Below are positions 16,875 through 64,000 of a stretch of 64,000 nucleotides of DNA, one piece after another (position 1 is the first letter of the stretch; each line of letters starts with the position of its first letter). A program made the translations under genes and the position numbers. The stretch comes from a virus. The stretch lies in IMG/VR virus record IMGVR_UViG_3300007987_000009. One strand, 5' to 3'. Under the pieces are notes generated by a model, which searched no databases, was not told where the DNA came from, and worked only from the letters and a program-made list of their open reading frames with translations.

Positions 16875-19064
16875 ATGTATCTTTCTACGCAACTAACAGA
16901 AGACCGAAAAAACGTTATTGTTTGGGAAAGAGGCCCAGACGGTAAGAGGGTCGCTGTATATTACGATGCCCCATATGAATTTTTTGTAGAGAACGAAGAT
17001 TCTGACCAAGAATGTTATTCCGTTACAGGAAAAAAACTAGAAAAGATAGAGTTTACGAGCCATTATGATTTCTATGGCGGCAGGAAGAGATTGAGAGAAG
17101 CGGAAATAAAGATATACGAATCTGATATTTCTCCCGAACTCAAAGTTTTGAGTGACAACTATTACAATAGTCCCCTTGACGGGGATCTTCATGTAACTTT
17201 CTATGACATTGAGGTTGATTACGACCCAGAGAGGGGTCATTCTAGACCCGACAACCCGTATGCTAGAATAAGTTCTATCGCTCTATACCATAAACACACT
17301 GACGAATCTATCGTCCTTGCATTAAGACCGAAGACGGGCGAATGGTCTAAGGTCCAACTAGACGAACTTCCTAGAGACTTATTTGATCATTCCAAGATTG
17401 AATTACTATCTAACGAAAAAGAATTGTTGACGCGTTTTTATCAAGAGATAGAAGACAGTGATGTCGTTAGCGGTTGGAACAGTGACTGGTTCGATGACCC
17501 ATACATCTATAGTAGAACCATGAAAGTCTTGGGTAAAAAATATACGAGGTTGATGAACTTTCCAGAGTCCGATTTGGATGTTCGTGTGGACGAACGCGAG
17601 AAATTCGGCACAATGGAAATGGTGGTTAAACCTCATGGGAGAATTTGGATAGACTTCATGGAGATGGTTAAGAAATTTGATGCGAGCGAACGTGATTCTT
17701 ATTCTTTGGAATCCGTTGCTGAAGAATCTCTAGATGGGTTTCAGAAGTTGAGTTACGACAAATCTCTGTATAGATTGTATCACGAAGATTTTGACGAGTT
17801 TTTACGATACAACATTCGAGATACAGACATTTTGAAACATCTTGACTTGAAGTTCAAGTATATGGACCTAGCTTTGAACTTTTCTCATATGACAACCAAT
17901 AATATTCCAGCGGTTTTGGGAACAACTAGTACGTCCGACACAGCTATTCTAAATTTCTGCAAACACGAGCAGGACAAAAGGCTTGTGTTGCCGGATGCTC
18001 CTTATGATGTATTTGATGATGGTACAAAGTTTGAAGGTGCTTTCGTATTAGATCCACAAATAGGTCTACACGAATGGATTGCATCTGTAGACATTAAATC
18101 TCTATATCCATCTAGTATGAGGGCCATCAACATTTCACCCGAAACAATAATAGGTCAATTCTTCGAAAACGAAAAAGCGTTTGAATACATTCAAGAAAAA
18201 TCGGGAGATATACATCTTACCCTGCTCTACGAAGATGGAAATGATGAGACCATGACTGCCTCAGAATGGAGAAATGCTCTAGAGAAGCGTAACTGGGCAA
18301 TAAGTGGCCATGGGACAATTTTTGATCAGGCTAAAGACGGGGTCATACCCTGTATCTTGACGAAGTGGTTCGACGAGCGAATCGAATATCAAAAGAAAAA
18401 GGTTGACGCTTATGCGAAACATCAAGAAACCAACGAAGAACGATATAAGAAGGAAGCCGAGTATTACGACAATATACAATACTTGAAAAAGATTCAGCTT
18501 AATTCTCTCTATGGGGTATTCGGAAACAAATATTTCAGATTTTTCGATGTTAGACTCGCAGAATCCACAACCAAGACCGGTAAGAACATCCTATTGCATA
18601 TGGCTAAAAAAATAGCTCTTATTTTAGACGGAGAGTACAAATATCCTTCAAAATCAATACTTTATGGTGATACTGATAGTGTGGTCGAATCTTCAGTAAT
18701 TGAAATCAATGGGGAATTTAAGAATGTAGGAGAATGGTTTAAAGAACATTCGACAAAATACGGTACATATATGGAGGGCAAAAAAGAAATCATAAAGATG
18801 CACGGAGACAACAATTATTCACCATGTTACAACCCAGAAACTAAGAGAATAATTGATAAAGAAATTCTTACGATATACAGACACAAAATAAGTAAACCAC
18901 TATTTCGCATTGAGTTGGAATGTGGAAAAATTGTCACAGTGACAGAAGACCACTCATTGGTAGTAGAGCGGGACGGTCAATTCATTGAAATAGCCCCCGA
19001 CGACTTGAAAAATGATGATGTTTTTATAACTATCAACCGTGATACTGATAAAAGGAGACTGTAG
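16875..19064 (+). CDS. Family B DNA polymerase, N-terminal part + IntN (18678-19061)
   Basis: DIEVD, GWNSDWFD, DIKSLYPS, KIQLNSLYG, YGDTD then intein block A (SVVESSVI) and block B (VTEDHSL). Confidence 0.95.
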   Translation: MYLSTQLTEDRKNVIVWERGPDGKRVAVYYDAPYEFFVENEDSDQECYSVTGKKLEKIEFTSHYDFYGGRKRLREAEIKIYESDISPELKVLSDNYYNSPLDGDLHVTFYDIEVDYDPERGHSRPDNPYARISSIALYHKHTDESIVLALRPKTGEWSKVQLDELPRDLFDHSKIELLSNEKELLTRFYQEIEDSDVVSGWNSDWFDDPYIYSRTMKVLGKKYTRLMNFPESDLDVRVDEREKFGTMEMVVKPHGRIWIDFMEMVKKFDASERDSYSLESVAEESLDGFQKLSYDKSLYRLYHEDFDEFLRYNIRDTDILKHLDLKFKYMDLALNFSHMTTNNIPAVLGTTSTSDTAILNFCKHEQDKRLVLPDAPYDVFDDGTKFEGAFVLDPQIGLHEWIASVDIKSLYPSSMRAINISPETIIGQFFENEKAFEYIQEKSGDIHLTLLYEDGNDETMTASEWRNALEKRNWAISGHGTIFDQAKDGVIPCILTKWFDERIEYQKKKVDAYAKHQETNEERYKKEAEYYDNIQYLKKIQLNSLYGVFGNKYFRFFDVRLAESTTKTGKNILLHMAKKIALILDGEYKYPSKSILYGDTDSVVESSVIEINGEFKNVGEWFKEHSTKYGTYMEGKKEIIKMHGDNNYSPCYNPETKRIIDKEILTIYRHKISKPLFRIELECGKIVTVTEDHSLVVERDGQFIEIAPDDLKNDDVFITINRDTDKRRL

Positions 19065-35177: not shown

Positions 35178-36848
35178 ATGAACGCTAAAAAAGAAATTTT
35201 GGTAGAAAAGCGAGACGGAAGAAAAGAACCCCTAGACCTAGATAAGATACACAAAATATTGACATGGGCTTGCGAAGATGTAACCGGTGTTTCGGTATCC
35301 GACATCGCAATTAAAAGCCAGTTACAGTTTTTTGATGGAATGAAGGCAACCGAGATTCATTCTACATTGACTAAAACGGCGGCAGATTTAATATCTGAGG
35401 ACGCCCCAAATTATCAATACGTTGCAGCCAAATTGATTAACTTTAATCTCAGGAAAGAAGTATACGGTATGATTACCCCGTGGCCAATTAAAAAATTGGT
35501 AGAGAAGAATGTCGCAACCGGCTATTACACGAAAGAACTTCTTGAATGGTATGATGATCAAGAGTGGCGCAAGATGGACAAGATGATCAAACATGACCGG
35601 GATTTCGAATTTTCTTACACAGGAATGAAACAACTTTTAGGAAAATATCTTGTCCAAAACCGCGTAACAAAAGAATACTACGAAACACCACAGATGGCAT
35701 ACATGCTAATTGCAGCAACTCTTTTCCATGGCTATCCCGAAGACACTCGAATGAAGTTCGTAAAAGAATATTACGATGCCTTGAGTAAGTGGGACATTTC
35801 TGTTCCTACACCGATTTTAGCGGGAGTAAGAACACCTACCAAACAGTTCAGTTCTTGTGTATTAATTAATTCTGGTGACTCACTTTCCAGTATAAACGCA
35901 ACAGCTTCTTCTATCGTAAATTACGTTTCACGTAAAGCAGGGATTGGCATAAACGCTGGTAGGATCAGAGCAGTTGGTTCTGAGATTAGAAACGGAGAGA
36001 TCAAACACACTGGGGTCATTCCTTTCTTGAAATATTTTCATGCTGCGCTAAAAAGTTGTAGTCAAGGTGGGGTTAGGGGAGGTGCTGCGACTGTGTATTG
36101 GCCTTTCTTTCATTACGAGTTTGAAAATCTTATTGTTCTGAAAAACAATAAAGGGGTCGAAGAGAATAGAATCAGACATATGGACTACGGAGTACAATTA
36201 AACAGATTGGCGTATAAAAGGTTGATAGAGGGTGGGAAAATAACTTTCTTTTCTCCCCACGAGGTTCCAGACTTGATGGACGCATTCTATTCCGGAGATA
36301 ACGATGAATTTGAAAGAATATACGAAAAATATGAGAGAAGTAGAAAGATAAAAATGAAATACAGTCTACCGGCTCTAGAAGTGTTTGGTACGATAATGGA
36401 TGAAAGAGTCTCGACGGGTCGTATCTACATCCAAAATATCGATCATTGTAACACACAAGGGTCTTTCATATCGAAACTTCATCCTATAGAACAGAGCAAT
36501 TTGTGTGTGGTTGGGGATACAACGATAGATGTCTTACTGGATGACGAAATCCTTGAAACTATAATAATAGAAGATTTGGCTAAGTATCTGGTTGCTCATA
36601 GAAGCGTTAAAGTGAAATCATATGATTTGAATACCGGTACCGAAGTATATAGTGAAATAACGGATTTTGCACAAACCGGAATTAGTGAAGAACTTATCAC
36701 CATAACGTGTGAAAAAAGTGGAAAATCCGTAACCTGCACTGGTGAACATAAAATATTTACTATGAACAGAGGCTATGTTGAAGCTAAGAACTTGCGTGAA
36801 GACGATGTTCTTAAAATATTTATGGGCAATACAATATCCAAACACTAA
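35178..36848 (+). CDS. nrdA: NrdA fragment 1 (442 aa, ATP cone) + IntN1 (36504-36845)
   Basis: VEKRDG, QFSSCVL, CSQGGVRGG, QSNL then CVVGDT and TCTGEHK. Confidence 0.96.
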   Translation: MNAKKEILVEKRDGRKEPLDLDKIHKILTWACEDVTGVSVSDIAIKSQLQFFDGMKATEIHSTLTKTAADLISEDAPNYQYVAAKLINFNLRKEVYGMITPWPIKKLVEKNVATGYYTKELLEWYDDQEWRKMDKMIKHDRDFEFSYTGMKQLLGKYLVQNRVTKEYYETPQMAYMLIAATLFHGYPEDTRMKFVKEYYDALSKWDISVPTPILAGVRTPTKQFSSCVLINSGDSLSSINATASSIVNYVSRKAGIGINAGRIRAVGSEIRNGEIKHTGVIPFLKYFHAALKSCSQGGVRGGAATVYWPFFHYEFENLIVLKNNKGVEENRIRHMDYGVQLNRLAYKRLIEGGKITFFSPHEVPDLMDAFYSGDNDEFERIYEKYERSRKIKMKYSLPALEVFGTIMDERVSTGRIYIQNIDHCNTQGSFISKLHPIEQSNLCVVGDTTIDVLLDDEILETIIIEDLAKYLVAHRSVKVKSYDLNTGTEVYSEITDFAQTGISEELITITCEKSGKSVTCTGEHKIFTMNRGYVEAKNLREDDVLKIFMGNTISKH

Positions 36849-48282: not shown

Positions 48283-48996
48283 ATGGATTATGAGAAAATT
48301 TACGCAAATTTAATTAATAGGGCAAAGAATAGAGAATTACAAGGATATGTGGAAAAGCATCATATAGTGCCTAAATGTTTGGGTGGGGACGATTCTGTAG
48401 AAAATTTAGCGATACTAACCCCGGAAGAACATTACTTGGCGCACCAGTTGTTGGTAAAGATGCACCCAGATCATGAAGGATTAACATGGGCCGCACTACA
48501 AATGACAGGTCGCCCAATAAGTGAACAACGAACCAATAACAAAGTGTATGGTTGGCTAAGAAGAAAACACTCCGAAAACTCGAAAAGGAGAGTGGGAGAG
48601 AAAAACGGATCATACGGAAAAAGATGGTTTTATAATCCAGACACTTTGGAAAACATCAAGTGCGATCCACAAGGAAAACCAATTGGATTCATTGCGGGTA
48701 GAATAATTAAAAAAGAAAAGAAGAAAACATATTGTCTAGATTGTGGAAAAGAGGTAGAAAAGCCAAGGGCAAAATACTGTGATTTTCACCGCAAAAGAAG
48801 AATGAAAAAAGTAGATTGGGGAAAGTCTAAAAGGAAAAAAACCGATCTAGACATAAAAAAAGCCTTGACATCCAACAATTATGATGTTACGATGGCAATG
48901 AAAAGTTTGGGTTACTCCGAAAAATCGTGTGAAGGAGGAAATACCAGATACAGATTTAAAAAAATATTATCAGAAATTTTACAGACTGATAAATAA
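48283..48996 (+). CDS. HNH homing endonuclease
   Basis: EKHHIVPKCLGGDDSVENLAILTPEEHYLAHQLL. Confidence 0.9.
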   Translation: MDYEKIYANLINRAKNRELQGYVEKHHIVPKCLGGDDSVENLAILTPEEHYLAHQLLVKMHPDHEGLTWAALQMTGRPISEQRTNNKVYGWLRRKHSENSKRRVGEKNGSYGKRWFYNPDTLENIKCDPQGKPIGFIAGRIIKKEKKKTYCLDCGKEVEKPRAKYCDFHRKRRMKKVDWGKSKRKKTDLDIKKALTSNNYDVTMAMKSLGYSEKSCEGGNTRYRFKKILSEILQTDK

Positions 48997-49113: not shown

Positions 49114-49349
49114 ATGAATACTAAAATTAAAGCTCTAAAGAGAGAAATACGAGTAATACAAGAATCTCTCGAAAAGAAAATAAAGAGCTTGACGCATTAC
49201 ACAAGGTGTGGTGTAATGGTGGCTGTAAAAGCGGACTGCACAGATGGACAGAGGAAGAAGTCACTGAAGAGTTAGTCTTAATAGCAGAAAAAAACACAAT
49301 TAGACTACGACAATGGTGGGAAAATTCAAAAAGTCGTAAAAAAGCTTGA
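49114..49349 (+). CDS. Hypothetical protein, frameshifted at A-run near 49175
   Basis: GAGG RBS; frame resumes as NKELDALHKVWCNGGC. Confidence 0.45.
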
Positions 49350-49374
49350 CAAGTGATATAAATAGGTTTATACT
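49346..49374 (+). promoter_or_regulatory. sigma70 promoter with embedded TATAAATA
   Basis: TTGACA-17-TATACT. Confidence 0.85.
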
Positions 49375-49402
49375 TGTAAAACATTAAAGAATTAAAAAAA
49401 TT

Positions 49403-49567
49403 ATGAAAACTATTGCAAACACAAAAATTAATATCGACGGACACAAGACTATTGCGTCTACCGATACTATTATTTCCGCCAAAAATTGGTCGGAGAGTCA
49501 GCAAGTGCGCGATAATTTTGCGCCTAGCAATAGTGCCTTTTTGTCTAAAGGACGAGGGATGGTTTAA
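49403..49567 (+). CDS. 54-aa putative leader peptide
   Basis: MKTIANTK..GRGMV; 3' end overlaps antiterminator strand. Confidence 0.6.
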   Translation: MKTIANTKINIDGHKTIASTDTIISAKNWSESQQVRDNFAPSNSAFLSKGRGMV

Positions 49568-49625
49568 ATAATCCAAACCTCAGAAAGAAAGACAAAAAGG
49601 CAGCTTAAAAAAGCTGCCTTTTTTT
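49534..49625 (+). promoter_or_regulatory. Mutually exclusive antiterminator/terminator (attenuator)
   Basis: 49534-49546 pairs with 49590-49602; terminator 49594-49625. Confidence 0.8.
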
Positions 49626-49746
49626 ATGTTCAAAACAGTGCAAACGGAAACGAGGTCCAATCAGCACTTTAAAAAATGAACGGGCGGGAACGAGGATGAA
49701 AACTCTCTTGTGAGTGGAAAAATTCGTTCTAAAACAAATTGTAGGT

Positions 49747-49806
49747 GCCCCCGGCTACCATTTTGTAGGTTGAGAAATGTGTAGGACGGTAGCCGGGGGC
49801 TTTGTT
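49747..49806 (+). terminator. 13-bp GC-rich inverted repeat, terminator-like
   Basis: GCCCCCGGCTACC..GGTAGCCGGGGGC-TTTGTT. Confidence 0.55.
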
Positions 49807-49872
49807 ATGCTTTATACTTGACAAAGAATGTTAAACTTAGTATAAGAAGATCAAACAATAAAGGATAAAGTT

Positions 49873-50094
49873 ATGGAAGATTATCAAAAAAGAGTGTTAG
49901 ATGAAAAACATGATCTAGACCAGAAAATATTCAGGTTGTACTGTTTCATAAACTCCAACAGTAAACCATACGGAGATTCTATATTTCCCACTCTGTCCAA
50001 AACAGAACAACAACTAATGAAAGAACAGCTTCAAATAATGAATTCATATTCTGATATTCTAGGCAAGCGAATAGCAGAATGGGAGAAAGAATAA
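49873..50094 (+). CDS. crAss001_48-like small helical phage protein
   Basis: YQKRVLDEK..LD.K..L..F..Q..M..YS.IL..RI. Confidence 0.65.
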   Translation: MEDYQKRVLDEKHDLDQKIFRLYCFINSNSKPYGDSIFPTLSKTEQQLMKEQLQIMNSYSDILGKRIAEWEKE

Positions 50095-50204: not shown

Positions 50205-50287
50205 ACACCTGATGACTAATTGGCAGGTCACCAGCCTTTCACGCTGGAGTCAGAGATGACGAGCGGGTTCGAATCCCGTCAGGTGTG
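50205..50287 (+). tRNA. tRNA-Glu(TTC) with long variable arm, no encoded CCA
   Basis: ACACCTG/CAGGTGT, CCAGC-CTTTCAC-GCTGG, GTCA-GAGA-TGAC. Confidence 0.85.
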
Positions 50288-50381
50288 CTTTAGCCCTTGC
50301 CATAGGGCATACCAAGATGGTAGAATAAGAAAAAGTGGCAAAAATATGTAAGACCACTGATCTTAAAATGGAGAAATAGAA

Positions 50382-50861
50382 ATGAAAAATAACACATACA
50401 GACTACAACTGAGTTTGGTAAATGATAATAATGAACGTGCTGCCGAACATACATTAGAAACGGCTATCGCTAAAGAAGCCGTGGAAACCGCGATAATGGT
50501 ACGTGGCGACATAATTGAAGAAATATGTGACCTGTTGATTGGAGAAGTTAGAGATATTTTAATTGATCGCAATCAGTTGGAAGTTTCGATTCATAGTTTG
50601 GTCGGACAATTGGCCGAGGGAAATCAGGTAGGGAATGATATGGTAGATAGTACAAGCGATGATAGAACTACAAACAACACCATGAGACATAATTACAGAG
50701 TGTTGTCCGATACTGAAAAAAGAGCGATGTCCAACATCAAAGACATGGGCCTAGAACTTCACGAATACATTGATAGTTTGGGAAGTTCCAGAGAACTATC
50801 CATCGCAAAAACAAAAATTGAAGAAGCTGTCATGTGGGCAGTCAAGCACGTGACAAAATGA
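50382..50861 (+). CDS. Protein with C-terminal Acb2/Tad1-like helical hairpin
   Basis: YRVLSDTEKRAMSNIK..RELSIAKTKIEEAVMWAVK. Confidence 0.65.
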   Translation: MKNNTYRLQLSLVNDNNERAAEHTLETAIAKEAVETAIMVRGDIIEEICDLLIGEVRDILIDRNQLEVSIHSLVGQLAEGNQVGNDMVDSTSDDRTTNNTMRHNYRVLSDTEKRAMSNIKDMGLELHEYIDSLGSSRELSIAKTKIEEAVMWAVKHVTK

Positions 50862-51518: not shown

Positions 51519-51802
51519 CAAGAAAACAAAGAAGACCCCGTCCTTCAGGGAAGGGGACAAATTCTAAAAATATTCACTACTTGACATAAACACTAGATAG
51601 TGGTACAATATCAAATATTCAGTATCGATAACCAAGTGCTGAATAATATTGTAAATATCTACCTTAAAAGCAGTAGAAAAAAGAACCGTAGGGCATACGG
51701 GGATAGCTTGCGGAGTCCGACATAAATCTAAAGTTCTTGTAGAGAACAATGTAGTGGACGATGAAACAAGAATCCTCTTCCTTTAGGGAGAGGAGAAGTC
51801 AA
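51519..51802 (+). mobile_element. Non-autonomous IS200/IS605-family mini-element (left end, promoter, omega-RNA-like right end)
   Basis: TTAT|CAAGAAA start, subterminal hairpins, tnpB-tail-like TVGHTGIACG, GTCAA end. Confidence 0.75.
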
Positions 51803-52833: not shown

Positions 52834-52909
52834 TGGGGTGAAACGCAAAGGGTTGAGCTGACTGGCTTTGAACCAGTCGTAGAGAGTTCGATTCTCTCCA
52901 CCCCGGCCA
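52834..52909 (+). tRNA. tRNA-Gln(TTG)
   Basis: ACTGG-CTTTGAA-CCAGT, GCCA. Confidence 0.88.
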
Positions 52910-54060: not shown

Positions 54061-54162
54061 GGAGAGGTTATCCGAAAGATTCGGGGTAGCGGAGGCGATC
54101 TTGAAAATCGTTTGTTAGTGTAAAAAGCTGGCGTGTGGGTTCGAATCCCACCCTCTCCGCCA
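54061..54162 (+). tRNA. tRNA-Ser(TGA), enlarged D loop
   Basis: Loop CTTGAAA, long V arm, GCCA. Confidence 0.88.
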
Positions 54163-58138: not shown

Positions 58139-58151
58139 AAAGGACACAAAA

Positions 58152-58511
58152 ATGAAAATGTACTGTATATTCTCACGGGAATCCTTGAAAGCCATGAAAG
58201 GAATACGAGGAAAGATGGCTTCACAAGCTGGACACGCTTTTCTACATGCCTTTTGGGACAGTGAAGAACGCTATTTGTATGATGCAATTGAATATGCAGA
58301 ATCAATGAACGCAGTTAAGATAACTTGTGTCGTTGACACTCAAGAAGAATTGAAGAGGTTGTATCACACGCACCTAAACGTCTGTGGGGTTACTCAAGTT
58401 GTTGATAGCGCTTTTACGGTATTGGATGCTCCGATGTTGACATGTGTAGGTATTGGACCGATAAGAGATGAAGAGGCTGAAGAACTCAAAAAGCTGGAAT
58501 TATTGACATGA
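58152..58511 (+). CDS. Peptidyl-tRNA hydrolase, Pth2 type
   Basis: GKMASQAGHA, KIT, DSAFT, TCVGIGP. Confidence 0.88.
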   Translation: MKMYCIFSRESLKAMKGIRGKMASQAGHAFLHAFWDSEERYLYDAIEYAESMNAVKITCVVDTQEELKRLYHTHLNVCGVTQVVDSAFTVLDAPMLTCVGIGPIRDEEAEELKKLELLT

Positions 58512-63363: not shown

Positions 63364-64000
63364 CATGATCTGTTTTGAAAGATTCAGATCAAAAGTTTAA
63401 AGCATGGATGCTTGCTTTGGGCAACCAGAGTAAAGGGTGAAAGAACTACAATTCATCCGTCCCGCAAGGGTCAAGCCATGCAAGCGCCGGTTAGGAAGTA
63501 CGAGATAAAACTCTAAGGCTTCCCCGTATGATAAGTGCGGTGTGTGCGAAATCGAGAGTAAGAGTCCGAAAGGATAGTCTCAGAGCCATTCGGTGAGAGA
63601 CAAGGCAGTTGGCGCTGCTCACTTTTACATGCCAACTCGATGAGCATTTAATACTAAGGCGTAGGTATAGGGTTCGATTGTTCGCGCAAGAGATGCTCTG
63701 TACCATCTTGATCGGATGAAGTGTAACAACTTCAGTCGTGAAAAGACGTTGAGTAGCTCGCAAGGCGAAAGACAGTGTGGAGTGTTGTATTCTGATGGAC
63801 AAAATCTGTTGGAGCAACTGGGGCAGCACTTCATGGTAGGTAATACGATACGGCCAAATTGGTAAAGGCATCTGTTTCCTAGACAGACGATTGAAGGTTC
63901 AATTCCTTTTATTGTTGAAAAAGCGAAAGTCTGCCTCAGTGTGCTGTTAAAGGCGATTAATACCAGACCGAAAAGAATCTGGTGCAACAATACCCGCAAG
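63364..64000 (+). ncRNA. Large structured ncRNA, GOLLD-like, 3'-truncated
   Basis: >600 nt without plus-strand ORF, many GNRA hairpins, embedded tRNA-like domain. Confidence 0.6.
63844..63917 (+). tRNA. tRNA-Arg(CCT)-like domain embedded in the large RNA, no CCA
   Basis: TCTGT-TTCCTAG-ACAGA, GAAGG-TTCAATT-CCTTT. Confidence 0.65.

Follow-up and report, generated by a model that had tools for sequence, protein, structure and literature searches.

A probable leader-peptide transcription attenuator conserved at the head of tRNA arrays in uncultured large phages

Comparative analysis of the phage DNA shown above, of which the complete 64-kb stretch is referred to here as the window, revealed a compact cassette that we consider probably to be a ribosome-mediated (leader-peptide) transcription attenuator, on comparative evidence only and in the absence of transcript or ribosome data. 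The cassette is one diverged member of a conserved family found at the head of tRNA arrays in many uncultured large phages. Its anatomy, its conservation, the coding selection on its short ORF, the co-variation of two competing RNA strands and its position before tRNA arrays were all observed, and the attenuation reading of the preliminary description, which had been made from the window alone, gains its support from the pairing, the ORF and the array position. Its probable effect is that transcription proceeds into a conserved RNA and the tRNA region behind it only when ribosomes are slow. The elements of the cassette and of the region directly behind it are as follows.

49346-49374, plus strand: sigma-70-type promoter, TTGACA-17-TATACT, with 11 of 12 consensus matches
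49403-49567, plus strand: leader ORF of 54 codons plus stop (ATG at 49403, TAA at 49565-49567), a diverged member of a conserved small-peptide family
49473-49496, plus strand: hairpin within the leader ORF that holds the Trp codon, from the MFE fold of the transcript
49487-49489, plus strand: invariant Trp codon of the leader ORF
49534-49546, plus strand: predicted antiterminator 5' strand, TGCCTTTTTGTCT, ORF codons 44-48
49554-49581, plus strand: small hairpin inside the antiterminator helix, with the leader stop codon in its loop
49590-49602, plus strand: predicted antiterminator 3' strand, AGACAAAAAGGCA, of which 49594-49602 doubles as terminator 5' arm
49594-49625, plus strand: intrinsic terminator with a 13-bp stem and 4-nt loop (hairpin 49594-49623) and U7
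49635-49734, plus strand: conserved structured RNA, reached only on read-through (covariance model R1, 99.1 bits)
49747-49800, plus strand: 13-bp GC-rich hairpin followed by CUUUGUUAUGCUUUAU, read from the sequence
49818-49846: nearest downstream promoter candidate, TTGACA-17-TATAAG, doubtful, its -10 lacking the conserved last T
49873-50094, plus strand: first downstream gene, a crAss001_48/Sequestin-family protein (Pfam PF21825, E 2.3e-16)
50205-50288, plus strand: first downstream tRNA, tRNA-Glu(UUC)

Behind tRNA-Glu(UUC) lie 17 further tRNAs on the same strand, up to position 63917, and a gene for an Acb2/Tad1-hairpin protein also follows the Sequestin-family gene and tRNA-Glu. Two of the listed hairpins allow only inferences at this stage: the one holding the Trp codon is a possible pause hairpin, for which no conservation data are available, and the GC-rich one at 49747-49800, absent from the terminator-scan list because its loop measures 28 nt, is possibly a second, weaker stop or a processing site.

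The preliminary description had named the near-consensus promoter, a 54-codon ORF, a 13-bp complement between its late codons and a site overlapping the terminator, and a peptide lacking any single-codon run. Each of these was recovered on re-examination, and the absence of a one-codon run leaves the leader without classical regulatory codons. The complementarity of TGCCTTTTTGTCT to AGACAAAAAGGCA is perfect over 13 nt, with 43 nt between the arms. A scan of both strands of the 64-kb window allowing up to one mismatch returned these two sites only, and shuffled sequences predicted 0.31 such 13-mer matches over the whole window, so that the pairing cannot be put down to chance. As nine of the 13 nt of the antiterminator 3' strand (49594-49602) also belong to the terminator 5' arm, the two helices are mutually exclusive. 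The caveat of a weak ribosome binding site was likewise justified, the Shine-Dalgarno sequence of the window leader being AAAGAA only, and the two other reading frames are also open across the leader region.

Sequence searches with the window peptide retrieved as homologues only an identical protein and that of contig L095, and no Pfam or PHROG family matched. Three weak matches (E 2e-4 to 8e-4) to long proteins with Ig-like or fibronectin repeats were rejected as artefacts, because scores add up over repeats. Ten near-identical contigs of the same phage (L001-L010) are invariant here and offered no informative variation. L095, reached through the neighbouring DprA-like gene, is a syntenic contig of a related phage, with ribonucleotide reductase, redoxin, an ATP-grasp gene and the DprA-like gene at 60% identity. 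In its unit a promoter is followed by a 58-codon ORF with a good Shine-Dalgarno sequence (AGGA); the encoded peptide shares 55% identity with the window peptide and differs by in-frame indels. The L095 strand UGCCUUUUUGGGUC pairs with GACACGGAAAGGCA ahead of a related terminator. Between window and L095 the ORF retains 69% DNA identity with a dN/dS of 0.47, and the non-coding DNA behind the terminator retains 94%. This conserved stretch served as the pattern for finding further loci. In viral contigs a first pattern gave five matches and a second gave 72, of which 30 were true loci (those five included), and pattern scanning of metagenome contigs yielded 52 loci. After removal of identical copies, 50 non-identical members remained, all from phage metagenome contigs, including ones from freshwater samples. 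The cassette was not found by pattern scan in one genome per species of 185,579 bacterial and archaeal species, and BLAST against 50,697 deposited phage records found neither the cassette nor the downstream RNA.

The layout of the family, with one cassette per locus, consists of a sigma-70-type promoter, a short ORF, a strand at the ORF end that is complementary to a terminator arm, the terminator, the 100-nt RNA and usually a tRNA array on the same strand. Of 41 members, 30 have a promoter with at least 10 of 12 consensus positions ahead of the ORF. In 17 members an AUGAUG begins 6-7 nt after the end of the -10 hexamer, which suggests that the mRNA is leaderless in these. Of the 50 members, 49 have the ORF itself, with 22-58 codons; in one member an in-frame ATG farther upstream would extend it to 72. 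The distance from the ORF end to the conserved RNA is 64-77 nt, except in the two members with an extra hairpin, where it is about 119 nt. The ORF products are 9-55% identical to the window leader. All 49 peptides contain Trp, 48 of them exactly one, preceded by KQ at a few residues' distance in most and followed by an R/D/N-rich motif, and the distance from Trp to the stop ranges from 8 to 32 residues. In the best-sampled subgroup every indel is in frame, with dN/dS values of 0.15-0.8. We find, on this comparison, that the ORF is a coding sequence under protein-level selection; its translation is inferred from the presence of the ORF in 49 of 50 members, the kept frame and dN/dS below 1, which together argue against an accident of a structured RNA. 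AlphaFold2 gave no confident fold for the peptide (pLDDT 55), and the lack of both a predicted fold and a known family fits a sensor rather than a product.

The 252-nt transcript of the window is strongly structured (fold z-score -7.1 relative to shuffles). Folding of both conformers, as proposed in the preliminary description, showed them to be nearly isoenergetic: within the full transcript the two lie within about 2 kcal/mol, the terminator form amounting to -73.5 kcal/mol and the form with the full 13-bp antiterminator to -72.9 kcal/mol, and the MFE structure, at -75.1 kcal/mol, contains 12 bp of the antiterminator. The terminator hairpin folded alone has -17.4 kcal/mol. Similar behaviour was seen in the 22 relatives analysed first, where full-length conformers usually differ by no more than a few kcal/mol. 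When transcripts were folded before the terminator 3' arm exists, 6-13 nt of the terminator 5' arm were sequestered in 21 of these 22 members, by a partner strand contained in the final 45 nt of the ORF. An equivalent terminator hairpin was found in 21 of the 22 and identified by eye in the remaining one (L154), whose U tract is interrupted; U tracts are shortened in several group-2 members. In relatives the antiterminator 5' strand mostly ends 2-8 nt before the stop codon, and in the window and L095 it starts 33 nt and ends about 21-24 nt before it, with the stop inside the helix loop. Across the relatives the stop codon is always in or just after the antiterminator 5' strand. No upstream partner that competes for this strand was detected in the folds of the window or its relatives, and the hairpin at 49473-49496 does not include it.

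Loss of the alternative pairing in related phages, which according to the preliminary description would refute the attenuation reading, was not encountered; the opposite was found, the pairing being kept in 21 of 22 members with changing sequence. Antiterminator strands differ by subfamily and change along with their own terminator arm: the window has UGCCUUUUUGUCU/AGACAAAAAGGCA, and other subfamilies have GGGUCC/GGACCC, GGGGUUCCG/CGGAACCCC, CCGGGGUUCU/AGAACCCCGG or GGGGGU/ACCCCC. Since the register of the helix slides between subfamilies, column-wise alignment of the antiterminator with MAFFT was impossible, and duplex energies of cognate and non-cognate strands were compared in place of column-wise covariation. 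Cognate strands averaged -17.4 kcal/mol versus -12.8 kcal/mol for non-cognate ones, 18 of 20 members paired better than shuffled strands (z -2.3 to -6.5), and strands of the window clade showed no cross-pairing with other clades. By these sequence-based measures, co-variation of the competing strands and conservation of the alternative pairing are evident.

These observations can be joined into a mechanism in which the role of ribosome position in deciding the fold, and the nature of the signal, are inferred. A host-type promoter would give rise to a transcript that opens with the 54-codon ORF. With no ribosome near, 49534-49546 would pair with 49590-49602 once the latter is made, most of the terminator 5' arm would be removed and transcription would read through. 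A lead ribosome that keeps pace and occupies the last dozen codons or the stop when the terminator 3' arm emerges would block the helix, and with the helix blocked the terminator would fold and transcription would end at about 49625. When the leader is translated slowly or translation stalls, more read-through would be expected into the 100-nt RNA and on towards the Sequestin gene, tRNA-Glu and what remains of the tRNA and anti-defence region. Because the first-formed helix removes the terminator 5' arm, the terminator is expected to act only if that helix is kept from forming, and the sole conserved candidate for preventing it appears to be a ribosome on the last codons or on the stop codon, which always lies in or beside the 5' strand. 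The earlier proposal that completed translation masks the antiterminator holds only in part: a ribosome would cover the strand at about codons 41-52, but one at the stop codon would sit in the antiterminator loop and not on 49534-49546. As no segment that would sequester the antiterminator is evident, an untranslated leader would give read-through, unlike in the trp system, where an additional upstream segment pairs with segment 2, acts as pause hairpin and anti-antiterminator and brings termination back if nothing is translated. A counter-point to this scheme is that the local terminator hairpin could displace the long-range helix kinetically.

The likely signal would be how fast the phage-supplied tRNA species decode, for instance once host tRNAs have been lost, given that the family heads tRNA arrays and its leaders carry codons for nearly every array tRNA. 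Comparison of leaders with their own arrays revealed that in eight of ten arrays all isotypes occur in the leader, the other two missing Cys only. A 25-tRNA array without only Asp and Glu is preceded by a peptide without only Cys, Asp and Glu. In a compact subfamily, whose arrays carry Ile, Trp, Cys, Lys, Gln, Met, Arg, His and Phe tRNAs, the peptides of 22-25 residues read MTKQIFKHMFCIRWYQ... and contain every array isotype; these isotypes make up 62-70% of residues versus 36-47% expected (p 0.008-0.02). In all 13 of 13 loci the leader samples more array anticodons than random windows of the phage's own genes, with single p values from 0.0002 to 0.12 and a Fisher combined p of 4e-10, the loci being related and not fully independent. 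Codon matching is not significant in several subfamilies, e.g. those of L149 and L121.

For the window the corresponding values are modest: phage tRNAs read 37 of 53 leader codons versus 57% expected (p 0.044), and 15 of 17 anticodons are sampled versus 12.7 +/- 1.7 in random gene windows (p 0.12). Twelve of the 54 leader residues have no phage tRNA of their own among those called by ARAGORN (five Thr, two Gln, two Met, His, Pro and Leu). Two tRNA-like genes that escaped ARAGORN would cover three more leader codons; their anticodon loops point to Gln(UUG) for the one at 52834-52909 and to a class II Ser(UGA) for the one at 54061-54161. The prediction that Thr, His, Pro, Leu and Met tRNAs lie past the window end failed, as none occur in the next 9 kb, and no further tRNAs of any kind were found in these 9 kb. 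The suggestion in the preliminary description that the leader may sense general translation failure, such as host tRNA cleavage, gains support from codon sampling at the level of the family, support that is weak for the window phage alone.

Nearly every locus with enough DNA downstream has a tRNA array on the same strand, with up to 29 genes, so that the placement of the cassette near the start of a tRNA region, noted before for the window, extends to the family. Most loci have their first tRNA 70 to about 400 nt past the conserved motif, and the window has it 534 nt past the motif; an exception is L098, with no tRNA in 1.5 kb downstream. No strong promoter separates the RNA from the first tRNA in 24 of 31 loci, and one is present there in the other seven (7 of 31). 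The caution that downstream genes have other promoters applies to the window in part: several tRNA blocks have strong promoters of their own (e.g. at 51581, 53275 and 55429), but the nearest candidate, at 49818-49846, is the one without the last T of its -10. Owing to these block promoters, control by the window cassette would extend no further than the RNA, Sequestin, tRNA-Glu and perhaps the Acb2-like gene.

The first product of read-through would be the 100-nt RNA, which directly follows the U tract and is present once per locus, with a single copy in the window. It consists of a P1 hairpin (AGUGC/GCACU, loop AACGAGG), an invariant AAAAAAURAACGGGCGG, and a P2 stem interrupted by the internal loops GGAUGA and AAAAU. 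In the alignment 96.9% of cells pair versus 26-41% with partners slid, and five of five P2 pairs have changed on both sides. Rfam searches of the window gave no hit at gathering score, the sub-threshold matches being STnc400 at 27 bits (gathering 80) and CopA-like at 30 (gathering 60), and in six relatives they returned nothing but tRNAs. One locus (L185) carries the RNA behind an ordinary gene without any attenuator, which identifies it as a separable module. Short words of the group-2 RNA, GGAAAGUCCG, ACGGGCGG and AGGUAACGC, occur in RNase P RNA as well. An identity as RNase P RNA was rejected in the absence of a model match (E up to 1 for the window stretch and up to 0.1 for six relatives), and we treat the resemblance as one of common motif words. 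The element GCACUnUAAAAAAU, half of which falls within the P1 stem, may resemble the rrn or lambda boxA and is regarded as a lead only. The role of this RNA is unknown, and processive antitermination or array processing are no more than guesses.

Taken one step further, the observations are compatible with a model in which phage tRNA arrays are under feedback: the leader, often on a leaderless mRNA, would sample codons of the phage's own tRNAs, and slow decoding, for example upon cleavage of host tRNAs by a defence nuclease, would favour the antiterminator and release the conserved RNA and the tRNAs, with the RNA perhaps carrying the polymerase through the long untranslated array or directing its processing. 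We offer this extension tentatively, as a possibility that we would not yet rely on.

Other explanations for the cassette have to be weighed against attenuation. It may represent no more than a small phage gene that has a promoter to itself and ends in a leaky terminator, with a peptide acting in trans and a complement that only tunes termination or stabilises the mRNA 3' end, ribosome position carrying no signal. Such a gene would account for the purifying selection on the peptide, its invariant Trp and common KQ motif, and would be compatible with the own promoters of the window tRNA blocks and the promoter after the RNA in some relatives. We nevertheless regard it as unlikely, since a default helix that removes the terminator 5' arm would defeat a plain terminator and yet is conserved and co-varying, and since the stop codon always falls in or just after the antiterminator 5' strand. 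Nor does a plain gene explain a peptide without predicted fold that varies widely between subfamilies in length (22-58 codons) and sequence while the RNA geometry stays constant, or leaders that track the tRNA content of their own array.

The same switch could alternatively be set by a nascent regulatory peptide of the TnaC/SecM kind, or by a factor or ligand, with Trp and nearby residues stalling the ribosome on a specific signal and not through decoding speed. The Trp found in 49 of 49 peptides, with KQ before it in most and the R/D/N-rich motif after it, together with dN/dS below 1 and the subfamilies without significant codon matching (L149, L121), speak for such a peptide. The variable distance from Trp to stop of 8 to 32 residues speaks against it, selection on amino acids is equally expected under the codon-sampling model, and tRNA-Trp is present in nearly all complete arrays, so that sampling also explains the invariant Trp. 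On balance this explanation appears quite improbable. That promoter and terminator merely delimit a structured small RNA without coding function, with an incidental ORF and the 13-bp helix as part of the mature fold, could draw on the fold z-score of -7.1 over the 252-nt transcript, the weak Shine-Dalgarno sequence and the two other open frames, but is hardly tenable in view of an ORF kept in 49 of 50 members despite low peptide identity, with in-frame indels and synonymous excess, the good Shine-Dalgarno sequence of L095 and the AUGAUG at the predicted 5' end in many members.

Leader-peptide attenuation, the reading we prefer, has well-known counterparts. The cassette resembles the enterobacterial leaders trpL, hisL, pheL, leuL, thrL and ilvL in its promoter-proximal short ORF and intrinsic terminator, in an antiterminator and terminator with nucleotides in common, and in the presumed selection between them by ribosome position, a lagging ribosome giving read-through. 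It differs from them in that the family has no run of codons for one amino acid and samples many codons, many members appear leaderless, the cargo consists of a structured RNA and tRNA genes instead of enzymes, and the setting is a phage. In contrast to the four-segment trp type, no 1:2 anti-antiterminator hairpin is evident in the family, which has three segments. In E. coli, the pheM leader before pheST, the genes of phenylalanyl-tRNA synthetase, reports on decoding of cognate codons, responds to a single amino acid by way of its Phe codons and has a protein gene under its control. The cassette would share with pheM the placement of a part of the translation apparatus under a leader peptide, and it differs in the many codons sampled and the RNA product. 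Attenuators such as bmrB-bmrCD, vmlR, ermK and the whiB7 uORF would be similar in responding to general ribosome slowing on a short uORF without a codon run, stalling freeing the antiterminator, but they answer drugs, control resistance proteins and have no sequence similarity to the cassette; none is known to be linked to tRNA genes. As far as the sequences allow, the logic would be that of known leader-peptide attenuation, and the differences would be the broad codon sampling, the three segments, the frequent leaderless starts, the cargo of RNA and tRNAs and the occurrence in phages.

Full-text literature searches found no published account of leader-peptide attenuation of tRNA genes, nor is such control discussed in a published survey covering 10,006 candidate viral RNAs. 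Should the feedback model described above prove true, it would provide the first known case of tRNA genes controlled by an attenuator, and the 100-nt RNA would constitute a new RNA class. Whatever its role, a well-supported new structured RNA comes with the family, whose about 50 natural variants of one switch are suited to reporter work. Why phages carry tRNA arrays is debated, the main proposals being codon usage, shut-off of the host and evasion of defences that cut tRNAs. A translated sensor that releases the array on slow decoding would, if confirmed, show the expression of these tRNAs to be conditional and make its trigger directly testable. In the phage studied here, two candidates for anti-defence genes, Sequestin and Acb2/Tad1-like, lie directly behind the switch, a placement that would link the sensing of translational stress to counter-defence.

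Immediately 3' of the attenuator's terminator, at window 49635-49734, lies a conserved structured RNA of 100 nt, which occurs in a single copy per contig in about 80 phage contigs (e.g. L100:1034-1133 and L211:7632-7737) and matched no family in Rfam. Its P2 stem shows strong co-variation, and an invariant 17-mer, AAAAAAURAACGGGCGG, is single-stranded. In one member, phage contig L185, the RNA is present without the attenuator.

As the -10 hexamer ends 6-7 nt 5' of a double AUGAUG in several members of the cassette family (L098, L100, L101, L116, L135, L147, L149 and others), the leader mRNAs of these phages are probably leaderless. Members of group 2 within the family (L103, L119, L123, L142, L154) carry an additional leader of 74-93 nt between promoter and ORF, featuring a hairpin with a co-varying stem (AUGAUGAA/UUCAUCAU versus GCUGAA/UUCAGC) that is lacking in the window's subfamily.

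Additional features were located around the cassette and elsewhere in the window:

16875-19064, family B DNA polymerase ORF, intein-splicing-domain match at its end
35178-36848, ribonucleotide reductase large subunit ORF, intein-splicing-domain match at its end
48283-48996, HNH-type endonuclease gene between a DUF285 gene and tRNA-Gly
49873-50094, Sequestin/crAss001_48-family protein
50382-50861, 159-aa protein with a C-terminal Acb2/Tad1 hairpin domain
51707-51772, RAGATH-18 match directly 5' of tRNA-Ala (41.1 bits, slightly below the gathering score of 44.9)
52834-52909 and 54061-54161, two tRNA-like genes that escaped ARAGORN but gave matches to Rfam's models for tRNA and tRNA-Sec

Since both ORFs end in intein-splicing-domain matches, the polymerase and reductase genes appear to be intein-interrupted. 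The endonuclease gene is absent from the corresponding site in the syntenic contig of a related phage (L095), and is thus probably a mobile insertion. Judged by their anticodon loops, the first tRNA-like gene (CUUUGAA) would be a Gln(UUG) tRNA with an odd D region, and the second (CUUGAAA) a class II Ser(UGA) tRNA.

In L224, a contig of the same phage as the window, three further genes adjoin the tRNA region:

L224:5742-6101, peptidyl-tRNA hydrolase (PTH2), inside the window near 58150-58510
L224:14372-15025, RNA ligase, past the window's end
L224:19240-19926, Thg1-like gene, past the window's end

Together, these may constitute a tRNA repair set. The Sequestin/crAss001_48-family and Acb2/Tad1-hairpin proteins, encoded among tRNA genes shortly downstream of the cassette, are candidate signal sponges.
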